64,000 bases of DNA from a virus. The stretch covers positions 1-64,000 of IMG/VR virus record IMGVR_UViG_3300009499_000008; one strand, written 5' to 3'. Made by a program: the position numbers and the translations under genes. Of this stretch, positions 54,521 through 64,000 are shown one piece after another; the stretch's first letter is position 1; every line of letters begins with the position of its first letter. The notes below the pieces were generated by a model. It was not told the DNA's origin, did not search any database, and saw only the letters and a program-made list of their open reading frames with translations.

Positions 54521-55063
54521 CTATGAAAGTAAAATCGCCCATTTTATAGAATCCCTCATCCCCACCCCCAGCGCGTGTACATGGTCTCGATGTGAGAAGA
54601 TCAAAGATGTTCCCGGAGCAGCCGCTGCAACGACATCTGCTGGATTAACTACATCAAGTGCAGTTTTCCATGAGGGTCTTAACTCTGCATTGTCTATTCC
54701 TAATACATTCCGCACATTAGCAGCGGGAACGGCGATGGCCAATCGAGACCATCTAGGTGTGACGTTGCCTATAATGACATCACCATCGACGACAGCAGCC
54801 GCCAAGGTATCTGTATGAGATGTGGATAATAATACATGCCTTGCATTAAGTGTATAATCAGCATTAGCGCCACCGTCTACTCCGACTAAGCCATCGCCAG
54901 CGACGAATCGCCTCTCAGCAGTCAACACAGCGTGGAGAGCCAATGTTAAATATTGTGCATTGATTACGCTGCCTGGACCAACTACCTCAGCATACTCTCT
55001 AGTCTCCAAGGCGCGTAATCTTTGGTGTATTTCTCGTATAGTCTTTTGCAATACAGATGGCAT
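54521..55063 (-). CDS. Short tail fibre-like protein
   Basis: RLRALETRE coiled-coil start, LTAER, DGDVIIGN, DHVH motifs. Confidence 0.65.
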   Translation of the reverse strand: MPSVLQKTIREIHQRLRALETREYAEVVGPGSVINAQYLTLALHAVLTAERRFVAGDGLVGVDGGANADYTLNARHVLLSTSHTDTLAAAVVDGDVIIGNVTPRWSRLAIAVPAANVRNVLGIDNAELRPSWKTALDVVNPADVVAAAAPGTSLIFSHRDHVHALGVGMRDSIKWAILLS

Positions 55064-56463
55064 CAGAGTAAATCCTCTGGTATGAATAGGAAGGTCGGTC
55101 TTATTTCCTCGCCAGCACTTCCTAAAAGAATATGTGCTTCTACTACTTTCATATTATAATCAATTTCTCTGTAGCGTCCAGTTACTAAATCGCCTACGTT
55201 CCAGTCTCTTCCATACTGAGTCCCCTCAGTAGGGATTCCTTGGAATTCGAAAGTAAACATCTCCTTGTTTTCCATAAGGAAGGCATCTCCCATAGCATTC
55301 AATGCCGCTGTATTGATATTTTGTGATCCCTCAAGGAAAGCCTCGATTCGATTCCACGGGGAGTCGAACTGAGCATCGTAAAGGCTGAAGCGTTCGACGA
55401 TCTCTCTAGCTGCTCCAATACCGTCACCAGCAACATAAGCCATCGTAGTCTCCGCAATACGATCCGTCACAATTCTGGGGTTGACCATATTCCCTCGTTG
55501 AAGGGAGAATATCGTAGGCACGTTGCCATCGACATTGCCCACTCTACGGTCTAAGCCAATTCTAGGATAGTATACATGAAAAGTCAATGTAGGCCCTATG
55601 CGATCTACATCGAAGTCTGCTCCAAGCTCTGAAAGAATCTCTATTTCATCAGAAACTCCCACGCCTCGTAAATTTCTAGTTACAGCAGCCCCCTGATTAG
55701 TGTCAGCTTCCACAGAAAAGTTAGCAAATTGTCTCAATCCATCCAAAGCTGAAGAACCTAATTGAAATCGTGCTAGTTCACGCATTACATCTGTAAAAGC
55801 GTCAGTCCTGCTAAAAAAGGCGCTTGCTGCATCTGGTCTGATGATTCGGCGTTTTACCATCGATTTAAGATCTGGACCCAAGGAAAGATAGATCTCTTTA
55901 TCTGCGCTATCTACAAGAAATTCATGTCGTCTGTGAAAACCCTCAAAATCGGTATACCACTCTCCGTTAGGATACTTGCGTCTAACTTGAACGAATCTAT
56001 CTAAAGCGAACTCTGAAGATCGTGTTGCAAGAACTCTGAGACGAAAGTTACCATAATTATGGTGTCCTTGGCCATTGACACTTTTTATATATTCTAAATT
56101 TTCAAAGCCTCCAGCATCATCGAATAAAGCAAGCTGCGTACCATCATGATCGTAAAGGATCACTTGATAACGGCCCATCAATTCAGGCGGTACGATACAA
56201 GGCACTACTGGTATTGGTATCGGAGGTGGAGGAGGTGGAGGAGGCGGAGCATCCTCCTCTACATAATCCACCTCAAGTAATATTTGAGTAACACGCCGCT
56301 CTTCGGTTGCATCCTGATCGACTTCGGCAAGTACTTGAGTGATACGACGATCTGTGTCTTGGATCTGATCGATCTCTGCCAAGACTTGAGTGATACGACG
56401 ATTGGAATCCTGTTCCTGATCGATCTCGGCTAAGAGTTGTGTAATGCGTCTTTCGTCGCCCAC
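55063..56463 (-). CDS. Tail hub protein (ReqiPepy6 Gp37-like) with four N-terminal 17-aa repeats and a polyproline linker
   Basis: AYVAGDG.G..R, RIEAF, YGRDWNVGDLVT; repeats RR(I/V)TQxL(A/L)E(I/V)D followed by nine prolines. Confidence 0.8.
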   Translation of the reverse strand: MGDERRITQLLAEIDQEQDSNRRITQVLAEIDQIQDTDRRITQVLAEVDQDATEERRVTQILLEVDYVEEDAPPPPPPPPPIPIPVVPCIVPPELMGRYQVILYDHDGTQLALFDDAGGFENLEYIKSVNGQGHHNYGNFRLRVLATRSSEFALDRFVQVRRKYPNGEWYTDFEGFHRRHEFLVDSADKEIYLSLGPDLKSMVKRRIIRPDAASAFFSRTDAFTDVMRELARFQLGSSALDGLRQFANFSVEADTNQGAAVTRNLRGVGVSDEIEILSELGADFDVDRIGPTLTFHVYYPRIGLDRRVGNVDGNVPTIFSLQRGNMVNPRIVTDRIAETTMAYVAGDGIGAAREIVERFSLYDAQFDSPWNRIEAFLEGSQNINTAALNAMGDAFLMENKEMFTFEFQGIPTEGTQYGRDWNVGDLVTGRYREIDYNMKVVEAHILLGSAGEEIRPTFLFIPEDLL

Positions 56464-56464
56464 A

Positions 56465-57484
56465 CTACCTCACCACCACGCCAGCTTCTATGGCGTTAAC
56501 TTCGTCTTCCGTCCAATCCTGTCCAGTATCGGGGCTAGTGCCCAAAACTTCTGGGTGATAATCATACGATCTATCGTATGGAACGTCGTCACCTTGATGA
56601 TCGACTCCATAAAGTCGCAGCAAACGAGCAAAATCTCCCCCCTGTGATACAGTATTATAAGCTCTACATAACCACTGTACCGCTGCAATATTAGCAACTT
56701 GTCCAGGTGTAATAACTAAATCTTGCATTGTATAGGTATCTTTTAAATCTGTCGTAGCTTGCTCGACGTAAGCAGCGTCGTCATCTGGAGGGACTTCATT
56801 TACTGCAGCCCAGTTAGCTCCAGCACTTGGTATCAGTTGTGTATAGTTGCCTGCACCAGTTGGCACAAGTCCTACAATGCCTCCAAGTCCAGGCCAAGAA
56901 TTATTCCTGATTCCATGAATACTATTAATCACCAAATCATCATAATATCCATAGCAAACATATCCACCATCGGAATAAGATGCTCCCCATACTATCACCA
57001 AGACCTCATCATCTGCGTCAACTTGAGTATCTCCTGAGAAGTCGATGACCTGCACACCATCGATCCTAACCTGAATCACACCAACAGCATTGTCTATGAG
57101 CACGCGGATTTCAATGCAGCACCAAGCATTAGTAGGCACGACACCACCAGAGACTATCAATGCGTCATTATGATCGCCTAGTCTAACTAAGAAGACGCTA
57201 TCAGCCTGCCGTACTTGAAAGGTAAGTAATTTAGCTCCCAGATTATCAAGTAAAGTACAAAATGTACGATCATTGCTTCCGCCTGTCATATAAAGACCGA
57301 TTCTAAAGAATAATTCTGTGTATCCAGTTCTGAGAGTTAACCATGCACGATCATCCGCACTCGGTATATGCAAGGAATAAGCACCTGTACGTGCCTGCGC
57401 AGCAGATATAACCGCTGCACTATCGACGCGAGGAAAGACATCTAGTGAACCAGCTTCTAGACCACTCATCCACAGTCTGGTCAT
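56465..57484 (-). CDS. Putative adhesin/receptor-binding protein, paralog B (lectin-like beta domains)
   Basis: WCCIEI, VRIDG..VI, YYDD; colinear with 57481-58488; ATGA overlap supports start 57484. Confidence 0.65.
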   Translation of the reverse strand: MTRLWMSGLEAGSLDVFPRVDSAAVISAAQARTGAYSLHIPSADDRAWLTLRTGYTELFFRIGLYMTGGSNDRTFCTLLDNLGAKLLTFQVRQADSVFLVRLGDHNDALIVSGGVVPTNAWCCIEIRVLIDNAVGVIQVRIDGVQVIDFSGDTQVDADDEVLVIVWGASYSDGGYVCYGYYDDLVINSIHGIRNNSWPGLGGIVGLVPTGAGNYTQLIPSAGANWAAVNEVPPDDDAAYVEQATTDLKDTYTMQDLVITPGQVANIAAVQWLCRAYNTVSQGGDFARLLRLYGVDHQGDDVPYDRSYDYHPEVLGTSPDTGQDWTEDEVNAIEAGVVVR

Positions 57485-58488
57485 CGTATTTTCACTCCCA
57501 ATTCCATACCATTGACAGCAGCAACGAGCCATGCACCTACGGCTTCAGGATCTTCATCTAGAATCTCAGGATAGTAATCGTAATCAGCATCGATTGCAAT
57601 GTCCGCTCCTTGATGATCTACTCCACCAATACGCAGAATTCGTGCGATTTCTGGGTTGCCAACAAGATCTGATTTGGCCCTTGCAAGCCACTGCACCGCT
57701 GCAATCGTCCCTGTAGCTACCAAGTTAGAAGCCGCATAACTATCATGATCATCGATGAGAGTATCGAAGACATATGATGTATCATCATCTGGTGGTACTT
57801 CGTCTACGTCCTCCCAGTTGGCTTCTGCACCACCAGGGACTCGCTGTAGGTCGGTGCTAAAGCCTGCACCAGTCGGGAAGATCGCTGGTATGCCTCCACG
57901 ACCGATCCAAGAAGCGTTCACAACACCAGAAGTATCGTTGAAGGCAATGTCGTCATAATAACCGGGACAACCGTTAGCTTGTGCTCTCCCAAGCCAAAAG
58001 CTTCGGACGTTAGCATTGGCCGTCTGTTGGGTATTTCCTGCAAAATTAATAACTAGCATACCATCCACTTTGAGCTGAAAGACTCCGTTGGCATTATCAA
58101 CAAGTAGACGAAACTCAATGCAGTGCCATCTGTTTTGATGCATCTCTCCACCCACGCCGATGACCGTACCGTTATAAGCTCCTCGTTTGGCAACCAAAAT
58201 CCCGGTCCTATTTGGTAATGTGATCGTGAATTGTATGCCCCCTACACTATCAAACAAGGATATGACTTCCGCGTTAACCCCTTGTGAGTTATGGCGAAGG
58301 CCAATTCTGCCAAAGATCTCGGTTTCGTTAGCAGGAAAAGCAGATCCAACCGCATCGGTAGCACCACTGGCCTCTAGCGAATACGTTCCTGTACGAGCCT
58401 GAGCGTTCGTCACTACAGGGCTAAATGCCTGAGAATCGAAAATATCGAGATGTCCTGCTTCAAGACCACTCATCCATATTCTTGCCAT
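57481..58488 (-). CDS. Putative adhesin/receptor-binding protein, paralog A
   Basis: Shares WMSGLEAG, QARTG.YSL, PTGAG, EVPPDDD, IAAVQWL, GVDHQG, YDY.PE with paralog B. Confidence 0.65.
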   Translation of the reverse strand: MARIWMSGLEAGHLDIFDSQAFSPVVTNAQARTGTYSLEASGATDAVGSAFPANETEIFGRIGLRHNSQGVNAEVISLFDSVGGIQFTITLPNRTGILVAKRGAYNGTVIGVGGEMHQNRWHCIEFRLLVDNANGVFQLKVDGMLVINFAGNTQQTANANVRSFWLGRAQANGCPGYYDDIAFNDTSGVVNASWIGRGGIPAIFPTGAGFSTDLQRVPGGAEANWEDVDEVPPDDDTSYVFDTLIDDHDSYAASNLVATGTIAAVQWLARAKSDLVGNPEIARILRIGGVDHQGADIAIDADYDYYPEILDEDPEAVGAWLVAAVNGMELGVKIR

Positions 58489-58498
58489 AATATTTACC

Positions 58499-60118
58499 TC
58501 ACCAAGAAATGTGTGAAACTTGATCCCATTGATCGATGGGACATTTTACGATGCCGCCCATAAATGGCTGAATCCTGATTCCCTTGTGATCAAATGTGTC
58601 ACGCAGAGGTGCACCAAGATTATTCTTCTTAGCATACAATGGAAAGGCATGTGTCGGAGTATGAGGCACACCGATAGAGTTCCAAGCCAAATCACGAATC
58701 TCTTCGTCGATTGGGCCGTCTGAAGGTGGTGCTGGCAATGGTCCTATCGCCCTGATAATGCTCCGCGCCGCGCCTTCATCGTGGCCGAAGGAAATCCATT
58801 CTGATTCGGGACCCCAATCGAATAGGAGCAAACTCTTGAGCCAGGGGAATTGCTGTGCTCGGCGCTCGCCCTCTGCAACCTCTTGAAAGTAGGTCGCGGG
58901 ATCACAGAGCGTGAGCCAGCCAGTCTTTGGGGCGTGGCCTGACTTCTCTGGTGCTATACCGCCGTCCACGCCCCACTCAGTCACCAGCAGCTTCAGCTTC
59001 GATACGTCCACGCCCAATTGTCGCCACATCTCCACGTCCCATTCGATACGGCCCAGGGCGTGCCAACGACCCAGCGGCCCCTCAACTCCTGGCCGCCAAT
59101 AGGCGTGCAAGCCTACGTAGTGCCCCAGAGCGACAGCCACCTTTACTGCTGGGGCCAGCTGTTGTAGCTTCCATGCACTCACACCTGTGTCGCCCGTCTG
59201 ATTGTCTCCAGGGTTCCCTTCTGGCAGATCAAGAATGACTAGTTTGATTCCACTAGCAGATGCCTCCCGCATAGCCCCGATGGAGTAGGCGCAGAGGTTT
59301 GCCAAGCCCTCATTGGAGTTACAGTCTGGCTCATTTGCCAGGGAGTAACAGGTCGCCCACGGTCTCTCGCGCCAAGCGAAAAGCATAAAGCGCATAAAGT
59401 CCCTGCCACCCTCTTCCCCCCTGGGCACGAATTGATCATCAATCTTGTCTGTGTGTATTCGCACAATCTTATTGGGGATGCGCGGCATGGGGTCAGGGCC
59501 AGCGGGTGGGTCCACGAACTTCACCCAGTTGCTATCCAAGTCTATCAACGCCTGTTGCATCCACGGCTCGATCTTCTGTATGTGTGCCGATGTCTTTGTC
59601 ATACTCTTTCTTCTCCCGTAATTTCCTAGCCACGCAATATCTTTATAGTAAAAGTCTAAAATCGCTCTGCAAGTCCAGCCTTTCTCGGCCATTGCTTGCG
59701 CTCCATATTGGCACAAGCCCCTACTGTGGCCGTGTTTAACTCTTCCACAGGGGCACTTGGCGACTCGAAGCCACTTGCCCCAATCATCAAGAGTCTTTCC
59801 GCCGCACGAAGCATGATACCAAGTAGGAACTAACTTCCTCTGATACAGTCCCACGATGCCACGGGTAGCTTCAACGATTGCATCCGTCCGTGCCATGCGT
59901 TTCGCTGGGTTGAATACTTGATCTCGTGTGTCAGCGTAGACAAATCCTCGCTCGACCACTTTTGCTAGGCCATAAGTACGAATGACATGAGCTTGAGCTC
60001 TTAGTGCCTCTTTGTGCCAATGTGAAGGCATTTCCGCTGGAAGTACAGCCTTCACATACTCCTCGATATTCAAAGCAAGAAGATTACTACCATCTATGGC
60101 GACTTTTATAATAGGCAT
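58499..60118 (-). CDS. Modular lysin: SpoIID/LytB domain, glycoside hydrolase-like barrel, C-terminal binding domain
   Basis: EEYVKAVLPAEM, EALRAQA..RTY, YHASCGG, GHSRGLCQYGA; then NEPD, LHAYW, VTEWG. Confidence 0.75.
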   Translation of the reverse strand: MPIIKVAIDGSNLLALNIEEYVKAVLPAEMPSHWHKEALRAQAHVIRTYGLAKVVERGFVYADTRDQVFNPAKRMARTDAIVEATRGIVGLYQRKLVPTWYHASCGGKTLDDWGKWLRVAKCPCGRVKHGHSRGLCQYGAQAMAEKGWTCRAILDFYYKDIAWLGNYGRRKSMTKTSAHIQKIEPWMQQALIDLDSNWVKFVDPPAGPDPMPRIPNKIVRIHTDKIDDQFVPRGEEGGRDFMRFMLFAWRERPWATCYSLANEPDCNSNEGLANLCAYSIGAMREASASGIKLVILDLPEGNPGDNQTGDTGVSAWKLQQLAPAVKVAVALGHYVGLHAYWRPGVEGPLGRWHALGRIEWDVEMWRQLGVDVSKLKLLVTEWGVDGGIAPEKSGHAPKTGWLTLCDPATYFQEVAEGERRAQQFPWLKSLLLFDWGPESEWISFGHDEGAARSIIRAIGPLPAPPSDGPIDEEIRDLAWNSIGVPHTPTHAFPLYAKKNNLGAPLRDTFDHKGIRIQPFMGGIVKCPIDQWDQVSHISW

Positions 60119-60120
60119 AT

Positions 60121-61092
60121 CTAGCTATCTGCTGTATAAGTGACTAACCATCCAGGGCAGTAAACGATGGCATTGACTGAATCCGCTGGATCAGTTGCAT
60201 CTCGAAGAGTGAGAAAGTTAATCATATCACCTATTGCCGCATTAGGTAAGGGAGTAGACATAATGCAATTTCGTTGATTCAATGTAACCGCAATCGCCTG
60301 ATTCACCGCATTAAATTCGGCAAAATGAGTATCCCAAAGTTGAGCACAAGCTCCATAACTAGCACCAAAGTATACCATAGCATTTCCAGTTGCATCAGGA
60401 ATTATAACTGTTTGAACTACCATATCGCTCACAAAGTCTTCAGGAACCATAGTAAAACCGAAGGTTTCTTGTGTTTGCGCGTCTTTAAGTTTATAGCCTT
60501 TCCATGCCTCCTCTTCATCTGCACCATGAGCAGGAACGAAAAATCTACGTGTTCTAGCCCCTAAACCAGTACCTACAGTGATAAATTCTCGATCATCTGA
60601 CTGAATAGTTACGACGCCTGCATCACTGATATTGATTTGATAAAGCGGTATTTCCCAAAGCACGCCATCAGTCTGAGTCACTGCTGGTGCAGCGGCATTC
60701 TCGGCAGGATTGATGAGACGAATAAGACGTATAGTTTGGGCTAATTGAATTGCTGGATCTCTTGCTGCACTATTAATATTCGCCCAAGTACTGGACAAAA
60801 CGATTCTATCCCGTCGCCAGTTACCTGCGGTTGCGCTTACTGGTGCAAAATCTACATTAGCGGTATTTCTATACCATTTTCCTTTGACTAAAGCAGCACC
60901 AGAAGCGATACGGAACTGATTAGCGCCAAGAATCGACCCAGCCAAATCTCCACCACGATTAGCCAAAACGCCTAAATTGACATCTGAGTTGAACATATCC
61001 TCAAATTGATCATCCCACTCAGATGCGTTGTAAGGTGCTCTTACAGCGTCACCCACTGCAACGCCATCCCACGGGCCACTCGTCTCTGCCAT
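60121..61092 (-). CDS. Minor tail/baseplate upper protein
   Basis: GAALVKGKWY.N, RRDRIVL, WEIPLYQI; follows the distal tail gene. Confidence 0.7.
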   Translation of the reverse strand: MAETSGPWDGVAVGDAVRAPYNASEWDDQFEDMFNSDVNLGVLANRGGDLAGSILGANQFRIASGAALVKGKWYRNTANVDFAPVSATAGNWRRDRIVLSSTWANINSAARDPAIQLAQTIRLIRLINPAENAAAPAVTQTDGVLWEIPLYQINISDAGVVTIQSDDREFITVGTGLGARTRRFFVPAHGADEEEAWKGYKLKDAQTQETFGFTMVPEDFVSDMVVQTVIIPDATGNAMVYFGASYGACAQLWDTHFAEFNAVNQAIAVTLNQRNCIMSTPLPNAAIGDMINFLTLRDATDPADSVNAIVYCPGWLVTYTADS

Positions 61093-61101
61093 ATTGTCCT
61101 C

Positions 61102-62007
61102 CTAAATACCTAAATATCTATTGAACCACTCTATTCTGGCCTGTCCTGAACTTCCCAAATTTACGCCAAAAAAGTAAATATCATTTAATCCACTTGGAGC
61201 TAACGGGCTAGGATCTAAATGAAATGTTCCCAAATCTGAATCACTGCTCAAATAGCCAAGTAGATTCTCATCCATATTATTAGTTACAGTTTTAATTCCT
61301 GGAGTAGTATCTATCGTAACTACCTCTCCAGCCGCTACAGCATAATTGAGTTTCAATCGCTCGCCAGTAGTTTGATTCTCCACCATAGGACCTTCCATAG
61401 AACCAGTAAAGATAATCATTGGATGAGAAATCCAATTTCCCCCATTTATCACAGTTACTATTTCTGATAGAACATTGTTCACTCCAAACATTATCGGAAA
61501 CGCTGCTGGAAGAATGAGCCACTGTTCTATATCCGCGCCAGATACTTCCTCCCCCTGTGGTGGACTATACCACACTGGATCGTAAGCGATCAAACGAAAA
61601 GCGATTCCTTGAGTTTCTGGTTGAATTTGTCCAACGGTACTCGCAGTAAAGCCTGCGTCGAATACGGTATTTCGTAATTCATAGATAGTTCCATCATCGA
61701 AAAGGATTTGAAACTTGAACGCCCCCAGCAAAGGATTCATTAACTCGATCATCTGAGTCCGCAATGCCCACATCTGTGGCCTATCACAGCCTCGTAAGTG
61801 CATTGTCACCTGTACTATTCTCGGCCTGAGCACAGTGCCCAGCAGAGTCTCCCCATGTTGAAATGGGGAACGAGAAGTCCTGTGCTCTAAACGAGGCATG
61901 GCTAATCCACTGACCTCTATAAGAGGCATAGGCCATTCTAACCAAGTTTTGTCATCACAGGCTGTGACAATGCGGAAAGTCTCGCCTTTTCGATGTCTAA
62001 CGCGCAT
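61102..62007 (-). CDS. Distal tail protein (Dit)
   Basis: PFQHGET, AYDPVWY, NGGNW.SHP.I..G, LAP..N; directly after the tape measure gene. Confidence 0.85.
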   Translation of the reverse strand: MRVRHRKGETFRIVTACDDKTWLEWPMPLIEVSGLAMPRLEHRTSRSPFQHGETLLGTVLRPRIVQVTMHLRGCDRPQMWALRTQMIELMNPLLGAFKFQILFDDGTIYELRNTVFDAGFTASTVGQIQPETQGIAFRLIAYDPVWYSPPQGEEVSGADIEQWLILPAAFPIMFGVNNVLSEIVTVINGGNWISHPMIIFTGSMEGPMVENQTTGERLKLNYAVAAGEVVTIDTTPGIKTVTNNMDENLLGYLSSDSDLGTFHLDPSPLAPSGLNDIYFFGVNLGSSGQARIEWFNRYLGI

Positions 62008-64000
62008 AGGATAACATTAACTCCACATCATCTACTATAGTCGCTGGAGATTGTGTATCACTATAATGAGCTTCTAATTGAATTGTAGGTCCAGGTGTTC
62101 CAGTAGGTACTACTATGATTGGCGGTGTAGGTGCTGGCACTGGGGCTGGCACAGTTGGAGTCGCGGCAGCACCAGTAGTTGCTCCTCCTTTCATAATGAG
62201 AGGAAGCTCCATAATCTTTTCTAGGGTCTCCAATCTTTTCTTTTCTACTTCCAATTGTTCCTTCTCCAACTTTAGAGTAGCTTCTGTCATATCTTTTATA
62301 GATTGCATAAAGCCTAACTCTGTTTCTTTTTCATAGATTATATCCTGTATAACAGTCAGTTGATCTTTTAACAATCTAATGCGCGCATCATAGTCTTGCT
62401 TAATGATCTCTGCATGAGTCTCAGCTAGGTCACGTATATCTTCCCACAGGGAAATTTCAGTCTCAAGGGCTATCCGAGTTTCAGTTTGTCGTAGACGTGC
62501 TAACTCTAACGCATCACGTGCGTTTTGGATTCTTGTCTCTTCTTGAAAAATTAAGTCTCCTATAGCTAAGAGTTCATCTTCTAACGCGCGAGTTCGCTGT
62601 TCAGCGAGTTCGTCGAAGGCATCGAGTCTACGCTGCGCCTGTTTGACTTCTTCTTCGGCCATTCGCCGTTGTTGCTCTAAAGCTATTCTAGCAGCCGTTT
62701 GTCTGGCCTCCTCCAAACGGAGATTTTCGCGCGCAAAAGTTACTCTATCTTCTTCTAAAGTGATGGCATCGACGAGCATTTGTAAACGTTCTCGTAAGGG
62801 TTCTAATTGTTCATCCAAGACATCTCGTATATCACGCAATCTTTCACGCTCGTTCTTAGTCTGTTTATTTAGAGCTTTCATCTCCTGCTGTCGGATGGCA
62901 AGTTGATCTTGCATGACAGCCGCTTGAGATTCCATTGTAAGGAATCTGGCAGAGGTAACACGCTGCAGAATCCGATTACGCTGCTGCTCCATGAATATTT
63001 CATGGTTGACTATATCAAGACGCTTTCTATCGGTATCGATGATGTCTTGTAAAGCATCCCTTTGCTTTTCCAAAGCACGGAGATGTCTTTCGATTCGTTT
63101 CTGCTCTATCTCGGAGAGACGTTCCATCCTGTCAATTTGTCTCTCGATTTCCCTTCGCTGTCTCCGAAGCGGAATCAATACCAGATCTGCATCGGCGCTG
63201 ATCTGAGTGAAAGCATCTCGCAGAGGCCACAGGGCTTTATCTAGGGCGTAGACTTGATCTTCGATTCCTCGCAAGGATAATTCTGCCGCTTTATGGACAT
63301 TCTCCAGAGATCGACGTTCGAGCGCGATCCGTCTTTGCAGCAAATCTAATTGCCGTTGTAGGGATCTCTCCTGTGCTCTTAGTGGAATGAGTATCTCAGC
63401 AGCAGAAGCCTCGACTCGTCGTAAAGCGAATTCATAAGGCTGCAATGACCTATCCAAGTCTTTGGAAATATCATTGAGTAGATCGAGTTGTGCCTGTGCA
63501 TTTTTGAGAGGTCCTTCAGCCAACTCTTCAGCAGCATCCGCCTCTCTCTGCAAGAGCACGATAGATCTTTGAAGCGATTTCTCCTGTTGCTGCAATGGGA
63601 TAAGGACTAGTTGCGCTTTTAATCTTTGAGTCTCAAAAGACTTTTCTAAAAGGCTCAAATCAACATCGATTCGACGAATCTGCGAATCAATTCCTTCAAT
63701 CAGACCCTCTACAAAAGCTTCTCCTGTGCGTCTTCCTGCTTGTGCAGCCTCGTCTTCAACTTCTCCAAAGACTCTTCTAAACCATCGTACAAATTGTTCG
63801 GCAAGCTCTCGTTCGGGACCTACGAAGGGCCTCATTATAAGTGCCTTATTTATTCTCTCTAAGGAGTCAACGGCTTCATCTATAGGAGCACCTCGCAGAT
63901 CTTTAATCAGTTTAATAACGCCACCAATTGCAATAGCAAGGGCGGCTAAACCCGCAACGACTAAACCAATCGTTGGAAGAGCAGCTGCCAATTTTGCAGC
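61997..64000 (-). CDS. Tape measure protein, C-terminal part (start lies beyond the window)
   Basis: Frame open to 64000; long helical/coiled-coil sequence with a hydrophobic segment; upstream of Dit. Confidence 0.85.
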   Translation of the reverse strand, partial: AAKLAAALPTIGLVVAGLAALAIAIGGVIKLIKDLRGAPIDEAVDSLERINKALIMRPFVGPERELAEQFVRWFRRVFGEVEDEAAQAGRRTGEAFVEGLIEGIDSQIRRIDVDLSLLEKSFETQRLKAQLVLIPLQQQEKSLQRSIVLLQREADAAEELAEGPLKNAQAQLDLLNDISKDLDRSLQPYEFALRRVEASAAEILIPLRAQERSLQRQLDLLQRRIALERRSLENVHKAAELSLRGIEDQVYALDKALWPLRDAFTQISADADLVLIPLRRQRREIERQIDRMERLSEIEQKRIERHLRALEKQRDALQDIIDTDRKRLDIVNHEIFMEQQRNRILQRVTSARFLTMESQAAVMQDQLAIRQQEMKALNKQTKNERERLRDIRDVLDEQLEPLRERLQMLVDAITLEEDRVTFARENLRLEEARQTAARIALEQQRRMAEEEVKQAQRRLDAFDELAEQRTRALEDELLAIGDLIFQEETRIQNARDALELARLRQTETRIALETEISLWEDIRDLAETHAEIIKQDYDARIRLLKDQLTVIQDIIYEKETELGFMQSIKDMTEATLKLEKEQLEVEKKRLETLEKIMELPLIMKGGATTGAAATPTVPAPVPAPTPPIIVVPTGTPGPTIQLEAHYSDTQSPATIVDDVELMLSYAR

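Follow-up and report, generated by a model that had tools for sequence, protein, structure and literature searches.

A candidate split-domain docking system in a phage tail module: strand-less lectin-like proteins beside a tandem array of strands on a Gp37-like tail protein

Introduction

In branched systems of the CBA120/G7C type, which use T4 gp10-like adaptor domains, several receptor-binding proteins share a virion, and one tail protein offers several docking sites for the different binding proteins. Siphophage peripheral baseplate devices, such as BppU/BppL of TP901-1 and the accessories of mycobacteriophages, likewise place separate receptor- or carbohydrate-binding proteins on Dit- or hub-type proteins encoded by adjacent genes, and attach them by surface docking, by insertion of β-hairpins into grooves or through anchor loops that run between folded domains (PMC13252515). 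Outside phages, the chaperone-usher pili (Fim and Pap), type V pili and TasA fibres (PMC9674648) employ a β-sandwich lacking its last strand, this being supplied by the N-terminal extension of another chain and inserted between two strands of the acceptor. Here we describe a locus of IMG/VR virus record IMGVR_UViG_3300009499_000008 (positions 1 to 64,000 of that record, the whole 64,000-nucleotide stretch that was analysed and is hereafter called the window) in which two paralogous lectin-like tail proteins, A and B, end short of a last strand and the neighbouring Gp37-like tail protein, the putative hub, begins with a tandem array of four strand-like repeats. We consider it probable that these form a split-domain docking system, the last strand of each adhesin being given in trans by the N-terminal array of the hub. 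The relevant features, all on the minus strand, are as follows.

57481-58488, minus strand: strand-less lectin-like tail protein A, 335 amino acids (aa), identified from phrog_2448, an AlphaFold2 (AF2) model, Foldseek and the family end point
57484-57906, minus strand: acceptor domain of protein A, C-terminal (residues 195-335), supported by the interface of the predicted complex
56465-57484, minus strand: strand-less lectin-like tail protein B, 339 aa, a paralog of A with the same shortened end
55063-56463, minus strand: Gp37-like minor tail (tail-tip/hub) protein, 466 aa (PF14594, phrog_538)
56263-56451, minus strand: donor array of four 17-aa repeats (direct reading, Tandem Repeats Finder, profile search)
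56185-56247, minus strand: proline-rich linker (P73-P81, IPIPVVPCIVPP), read directly
55066-56178, minus strand: Gp37-like domain proper, residues 96-466 (83-85% identity in loci L059-L064)

Results and Discussion

Two paralogs with a shortened end

Proteins A and B are 42% identical (E 1e-86) and, as a preliminary description of this stretch had noticed and direct reading confirms, both stop abruptly at a shared motif, W-x4-VN-x2-E-x-GV-x2-R: A ends with W-LVAA-VN-GM-E-L-GV-KI-R and B with W-TEDE-VN-AI-E-A-GV-VV-R. The open reading frame of B spans 56465-57532, but the start is most likely the ATG at 57484, overlapping the gene for A (ATGA), rather than that of the longer frame; the resulting 339-aa product matches the database protein P0049. 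Both paralogs match phrog_2448, a family of unknown function, as far as profile position 334 of 335 (E 8.7e-26 and 2.3e-22). The 41 aligned homologs of A stop, without exception, at the W..VN..E.G end. A search with the 141-aa C-terminal domain against 1.84 billion representatives yielded 5524 clusters (at 50% identity) with E≤1e-3, and 230 of the 233 relatives with an aligned domain end stop no more than three residues from the common point. Relatives at the level of fold are also present in phages of Achromobacter, Serratia, Providencia, Vibrio and Roseovarius.

Protein A comprises an N-terminal ConA-like jelly roll (approximately residues 1-190) and a C-terminal β-sandwich without its last strand. 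Foldseek matches of the N-terminal domain (probability 1.0, E 5e-8 to 1e-5) include TtX122, the PL20, PL36 and PL7 lyases, Cip1 and calreticulin, and Cip1 is also the only PDB sequence that the family profile reaches for this domain (E 2.7e-4). Since the folds closest to the jelly roll are those of polysaccharide lyases and lectins, these proteins may plausibly bind receptors or cleave glycans; the term adhesin is employed here for A and B as a functional guess. The acceptor domain is covered by no Pfam family, and neither it nor the hub protein has a match by sequence in the PDB. Within the six frames of the 79.7-kb genome from which the window derives, the acceptor domain is found only in the two paralogs.

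The hub protein and its repeat array

The Gp37-like protein matches Pfam family PF14594 (Sipho_Gp37) over residues 188-458, scoring 57.9 bits against a gathering cutoff of 26.2, as well as the minor tail protein family phrog_538 (E 2.4e-29); that it acts as the hub is an assumption based on where its gene lies. The gene starts with GTG, one base past the TAG of the gene for B, and is preceded by GGTGAGG as ribosome-binding site (RBS); the two genes are, to all appearances, translationally coupled.

Residues 1-67 of the hub protein are made up of four 17-aa repeats with the consensus R-R-[IV]-T-Q-x-L-x-E-[IV]-D. Their 12-aa strand motifs occupy residues 5-16 (RRITQLLAEIDQ), 22-33 (RRITQVLAEIDQ), 39-50 (RRITQVLAEVDQ) and 56-67 (RRVTQILLEVDY), the first three being of type L-A-E-[IV]-D-Q and the fourth of type L-L-E-V-D-Y. 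Around nine residues of each repeat form the core strand and around eight the spacer. Tandem Repeats Finder detects a 51-nt period in the array, and a profile of the repeats, run against all six frames of the genome, recovers the hub N-terminus only (E 1.7e-20; next best match, E 2.1). Behind the array come nine prolines (P73-P81), then IPIPVVPCIVPP and, from residue 96, the sequence MGRYQVILYD. In describing four 17-aa repeats, nine prolines and the beginning of the hub domain at MGRYQVILYD, the preliminary description was correct in every detail. Its further suggestion of a rigid polyproline arm fails as a conserved feature: in relatives the proline-rich linker is replaced by a poly-Thr/Ser stretch or lost altogether.

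The last strand in cis

The preliminary description had held that domains of this type often continue with one last strand, and had considered that homologs never carrying that strand in cis would count against its proposal. The strand is in fact carried in cis by P0177, P0198, P0227 and P0229, by at least nine viral fusions and by gp21 of Sphingomonas phage Kharn. In every longer relative the shared ...E/Q-x-G... end leads into a short loop, after which comes a strand of the pattern R-x-V-[ST]-[QA]-x-[WY]-x-x-V-x-[YH]. P0177, for example, runs on as ...EAGIQL-TAVGGLLI-ARVSQIVLEVGV, with eleven prolines behind. Two tandem copies of the domain are present in each of P0198, P0227 and P0229, which are multidomain proteins of cell-surface type; every copy is completed by its own strand, for instance ARVTQLWVEVTY or ARCTQVYVVVDY. 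The viral fused forms (L035, 1301 aa; L038, 990 aa; L041, 664 aa; L043/L045 and L050, 403 aa; L047-L049, 427 aa) have a loop of 8-12 residues and then R-x-V-[ST]-A-x-W-x-L-V-[DE]-[YH], often continuing into a linker rich in Pro or in Thr/Ser and, behind it, the large body of a tail protein.

As an aside, P0227, P0229 and P0198 are large surface proteins not of phage type that also contain VWA, PKD, CARDB or rhamnogalacturonan-lyase domains. The complete domain, with its last strand, represents in them an unnamed family for which there is no Pfam model.

Gene linkage of strand-less proteins and arrays

Linkage was surveyed in 50 viral loci with relatives of the paralogs. In about 25 divergent loci, viral or from metagenome-assembled genomes (MAGs), the neighbour of the last strand-less gene starts with between two and seven strand-like repeats. 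Those of the closest relatives read R-[VI]-[TS]-Q-x3-E-[VI], and distant ones keep the alternating pattern (RRVTVADAEIEY, VSQVVAQVEY, RVTAVQAEVEY, ISSVLLEIDI); the most divergent arrays, among them those of L009, L013 and L018, lie outside the reach of the iterated strand profile and were read by eye. The carriers of the arrays are Gp37-like hubs, tail-fibre proteins, a tail protein of F5/8-type-C, a DUF2460 protein and stand-alone proteins of 58-100 aa (phrog_13560). A profile search of genome contigs, based on a 12-row alignment, found six MAG loci, in Anaerolineales, Syntrophales and other Desulfobacterota-type bins. Among the Gp37-like loci with upstream sequence, array and acceptor gene occur together in 6 and are jointly missing from 41, and no locus has one alone (6/6 vs 0/41; Fisher p 9e-8, a figure that ignores relatedness). 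The geometry of the junction differs among loci, from a 1-nt gap to overlaps of 1 nt or 4 nt.

A close relative, L002 (4979-9729), has three paralogs, two of A type and one of B type, and five repeats, the extra A-type paralog being accompanied by a fifth repeat of LxEVDQ type. Its array is almost identical to that of the window, yet no resemblance to the Gp37-like domain can be detected in the 562-aa body behind it; such an array is portable between tail proteins. The hub domain is 83-85% identical in L059-L064, of which L061-L064 keep the junction …PPV[VI]PCIVPPEL behind a poly-Thr/Ser linker. In L061 (3366-6119), the only one of these four with upstream sequence kept, a hub domain 84% identical to that of the window is fused to an N-terminal domain of approximately 425 aa belonging to no known family; a poly-Thr/Ser linker of some 110 residues replaces the array and joins at the identical ...PPVVPCIVPPEL junction, and the locus contains no strand-less acceptor gene. 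The presence of a covalent domain at the same junction indicates that the hub N-terminus is a display site, whether the display is covalent or through strands.

Two further observations concern the architecture of such loci. L061 illustrates module swapping at a fixed junction (…PPVVPCIVPPEL). In L034 (4542-11516), a single viral contig contains two successive cassettes, each composed of two strand-less genes and a repeat-bearing protein, the latter with six repeats each and poly-Thr linkers.

A further arrangement is present in Caulobacter phage phiCbK, where a 69-aa protein with three repeats (ARVTQETVEVI, VRLTQETVEVI and ARLTQVTVEVI) is followed directly by a 362-aa strand-less homolog. The pair is flanked by the genes for tail protein gp101 and endolysin gp104 (numbered as in PMC3556154), and phiCbK would thereby appear to be a culturable model for the docking pair. 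The stand-alone repeat proteins, such as those of phiCbK (L057:4364-4573) and L054 (1406-1708), have at their end a short tail of basic and hydrophobic residues, which reads …RPRRLIFMLGA in phiCbK and …PRRIFPVP…W.SQ…KR.FP in L054. The same tail ends a 325-aa LamG-like protein in L052/L053 (L052:2637-3614). It is possibly another docking motif, by which these small adaptors are fixed to the virion.

The preliminary description asked whether repeat number tracks the number of adhesin genes. Across loci the two are weakly and positively related (rho 0.41, p 0.055), and in none of 23 loci are there fewer repeats than adhesin genes. A rule of one repeat per adhesin gene was rejected, since a single adhesin gene is usually accompanied by three repeats (the median) and two genes by four to six. 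Several copies of an adhesin are probably held by each donor chain. A division of repeat types between paralogs is unsupported, as repeats of two types also occur where there is only one adhesin, but the fifth repeat that goes with the third paralog in L002 hints at addressing.

Predicted complex of protein A with repeat 4

The AF2 model of A alone is confident overall (predicted local distance difference test, pLDDT, 91.7), with residues 185-204 as coil and a dip in confidence at 211-240. Complex prediction was applied to one pair, A (with its alignment) and hub residues 50-80, which contain repeat 4. The interaction prediction score from aligned errors (ipSAE) was 0.94 in each of three runs, a mark reached by 58 of 80 solved complexes and by 2 of 110 mismatched pairs; the controls scored 0.24, 0.01 and 0.01. 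Contacts agreed between runs to at least 91%, and the partner peptide had pLDDT values of 70-72. Since the acceptor domain has no sequence-related solved structure, the score is not the memory of a solved complex.

In the predicted complex, peptide residues 52-70 contact A. Residues 58-66 run antiparallel to A 264-271 in constant register (i+j = 330) and, on their other side, pair with A 200-204 (i+j = 265-266). Repeat 4 is thus predicted to be inserted between two strands of A rather than added at an edge, a cross-sheet contact at A 200-204 being still formally allowed. The preliminary description had proposed looking for a groove filled by a single repeat; in the prediction the repeat appears in the C-terminal domain as an extended strand, not as the helix that it had named as contrary evidence. 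A complete sandwich without a groove, also named there, is likewise not what the models suggest. The groove of A is predicted at residues 195-205, 227-243 and 258-274, and in the AF2 model of P0177, which naturally contains the strand in cis (E355-368, pLDDT 70-77), the segment equivalent to A 198-203 is a strand beside the cis strand, in contrast to the coil in the model of A alone.

The columns of the predicted interface are conserved above the rest of the family alignment (0.65 vs 0.47, p 2.5e-8) and hold its most conserved motifs, namely MSGxEAG at the N-terminus, WIGRGGI, VDEVPPDDDxxYV and AVQWLxRA. Similarly, A and B are 56% identical at the predicted interface and 38% identical elsewhere (p 0.01), the groove strand IAAVQWL[A/C]RA being conserved in both.

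Proposed mechanism

The donor-strand complementation put forward in the preliminary description is therefore supported by four independent kinds of computational evidence: truncation, cis forms, co-occurrence of the linked genes and the predicted insertion of repeat 4 into A. Coupled synthesis would provide strand-less lectin modules together with a hub that presents four complementing strands on its flexible N-terminus. Each repeat would insert antiparallel between adhesin residues 264-271 and 198-204, completing the sandwich and so tethering the adhesin non-covalently to the tail tip. With several repeats inserted, one hub chain could hold more than one lectin module, and a strand of about nine residues with a spacer of about eight might let modules occupy adjacent sites like beads on a string. 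We infer that the binding is real and extends to B and to repeats 1-3, that sites can be occupied simultaneously and that the modules are displayed on the virion. The arrangement likely originated through fission of a fused gene with the order lectin domain, last strand, linker and tail protein, followed by duplication of the strand.

A bolder form of this proposal, which we regard as rather doubtful, makes the strand and its socket a general, portable addressing system of tailed phages, whereby any tail protein, be it a hub, a Dit-like protein, a fibre or a small adaptor, can gain an N-terminal array and carry several strand-less lectin modules. The two repeat types, LxE[IV]DQ in three or four copies and LLEVD[YF] in one, would then address two types of paralog and fix their order and copy number.

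Alternative explanations

Several points weigh against donor-strand docking as proposed here. The structural support consists entirely of prediction, for a single pair of adhesin and repeat; a fold derived from a language model may merely transfer the cis arrangement of homologs; and the model of unbound A is itself confident (pLDDT 91.7), with the open groove deduced from secondary structure only. Certain strand-less homologs, such as those in L017, L020, L021, L030, L052 and L056, have no recognisable donor nearby. The band-based virion proteome of phiCbK lists eight proteins, neither member of the pair among them (PMC3556154). Repeat count differs from adhesin gene count, with between two and seven repeats for one gene, and repeats 1-3 depart systematically from repeat 4, with Ala for Leu and Gln for Tyr.

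In a first alternative, only the final, canonical repeat (LLEVDY) would bind an adhesin, repeats 1-3 (LAE[IV]DQ) acting as spacers, decoys or sites for another virion component. In most arrays it is the last repeat, with its terminal aromatic residue, that comes nearest to the cis consensus, loci with a single adhesin still hold about three repeats, and repeat 4 is the sole repeat that was folded with an adhesin. Many arrays, however, are canonical throughout (AQVEY three times in L018, xxVEY four times in L033, EVI three times in phiCbK), the R-I-T-Q-x-L-x-E core of repeats 1-3 is kept under selection across L001-L003, and in L002 the extra A-type paralog is paired with an extra LxEVDQ repeat; we therefore hold a single functional plug to be unlikely. 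Less likely still is that the array folds by itself, for instance into a trimeric coiled coil or β-spiral serving as a stalk of the hub, and binds no lectin module, the linkage reflecting nothing but a shared tail module. Ile or Val at positions 3, 6, 7 and 10 would also suit an amphipathic helix and a 17-aa period falls within the range of fibre shaft repeats, but the same motif is the last strand of a complete domain in the cis forms, the arrays co-occur with strand-less genes in 6/6 vs 0/41 loci, stand-alone repeat proteins of 58-100 aa adjoin acceptor genes, and the complex prediction scores high relative to its controls.

Insertion might, on the other hand, be genuine and transient, the lectin-like proteins chaperoning assembly of the hub N-terminus, or being chaperoned by it, and being absent from the finished virion. 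For the phage of the window a virion location is a presumption, and the phiCbK counterparts went undetected in the band-based proteome mentioned above. Against this, large tail proteins begin with the same lectin domain in the covalently fused forms of L035, L038 and L041, the L061 hub has a fused N-terminal domain at the same junction, and Achromobacter phage AchV4 has a structural homolog that, by annotation only, is a virion structural protein, so that we consider a purely chaperoning role very improbable. The proximity of the TAG of B to the hub start, one base away, and the fact that P0177 reads as such a fusion might finally suggest that a programmed frameshift or readthrough joins B to the hub and leaves the strand in cis after all. 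This we find scarcely credible, given the good RBS and GTG start at the junction, the variable junction geometry among loci, as seen in ordinary translational coupling, and the phiCbK donor gene lying upstream of its acceptor gene; it would moreover leave the four repeats and a second, unlinked paralog unexplained.

Genomic context

The source contig is 79,674 bp long with a guanine-plus-cytosine content of 45.7%. Its bases 1-123 are found again at 79552-79674, and owing to this terminal recurrence, which reflects either circular assembly or terminal redundancy, the phage genome is probably complete. The remaining genes of the tail module are listed here.

61997-64000, minus strand: tape measure protein
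61102-62007, minus strand: Dit (SPP1_Dit/Sipho_tail)
60121-61092, minus strand: 323-aa structural-type protein between Dit and the SpoIID-like gene, with weak PHROG matches ('virion structural/head protein')
58499-60118, minus strand: 539-aa protein, SpoIID-like at the N-terminus (PF08486), its long C-terminal part being unassigned

Four genes lie between those of Dit and the Gp37-like protein, a gene order unusual for a siphophage. The SpoIID-like 539-aa protein, encoded inside the tail module with Dit on one side and the lectin-like genes on the other, is a candidate for a cell-wall enzyme associated with the virion.

Implications and comparison with known systems

Were donor-strand docking to hold, it would explain how a very large phage protein family (5524 clusters) is attached to the virion, at a time when the acceptor family, its acceptor domain and the stand-alone repeat proteins (phrog_13560) are all unannotated. 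It would also represent a simple route by which receptor-binding modules are swapped and multiplied, and an example of a domain made into a plug-in part by splitting its gene at the edge of a strand. In metagenomic phages, matching tail proteins could be predicted from the 12-residue strand and its socket, which also constitute a natural split-domain tag. A literature search on strand complementation or augmentation in phage tails, on Sipho_Gp37 and on the phiCbK tail found no split-domain or tandem-strand docking.

The resemblance to chaperone-usher pili extends to the missing last strand, its provision by an N-terminal extension of another chain and, in our prediction, its insertion between two strands. 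The differences are nevertheless considerable. Assembly of a phage tail is cytoplasmic and involves no chaperone, usher or secretion, and neither a periplasmic chaperone nor an outer-membrane usher is present among the Pfam and PHROG assignments of the tail module. Donor and acceptor are not combined in one subunit, the strand profile matching only the hub and the acceptor domain only the two paralogs; acceptors without a donor cannot polymerise, and the donors are instead tandem, in two to seven copies on one scaffold. No sequence or family relationship links the two, and the docking system is an analogue of chaperone-usher complementation, not a member.

The siphophage baseplate devices share the use of separate binding proteins, but none of them rebuilds one domain across two chains or repeats a docking peptide. 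The CBA120/G7C-type systems depend on folded adaptor domains borne by the receptor-binding proteins, with one site for each partner, where the hub described here would offer 12-residue strands in tandem. Similar in composition are the fused relatives (phrog_14065 and phrog_5313, with Kharn gp21), which have the same lectin domain and β-sandwich, the last strand and a Pro- or Thr-rich linker to a tail protein. These have the strand in cis and contain the lectin module as a covalent part of the tail protein, whereas in the window the gene appears to have been cut just before the last strand.

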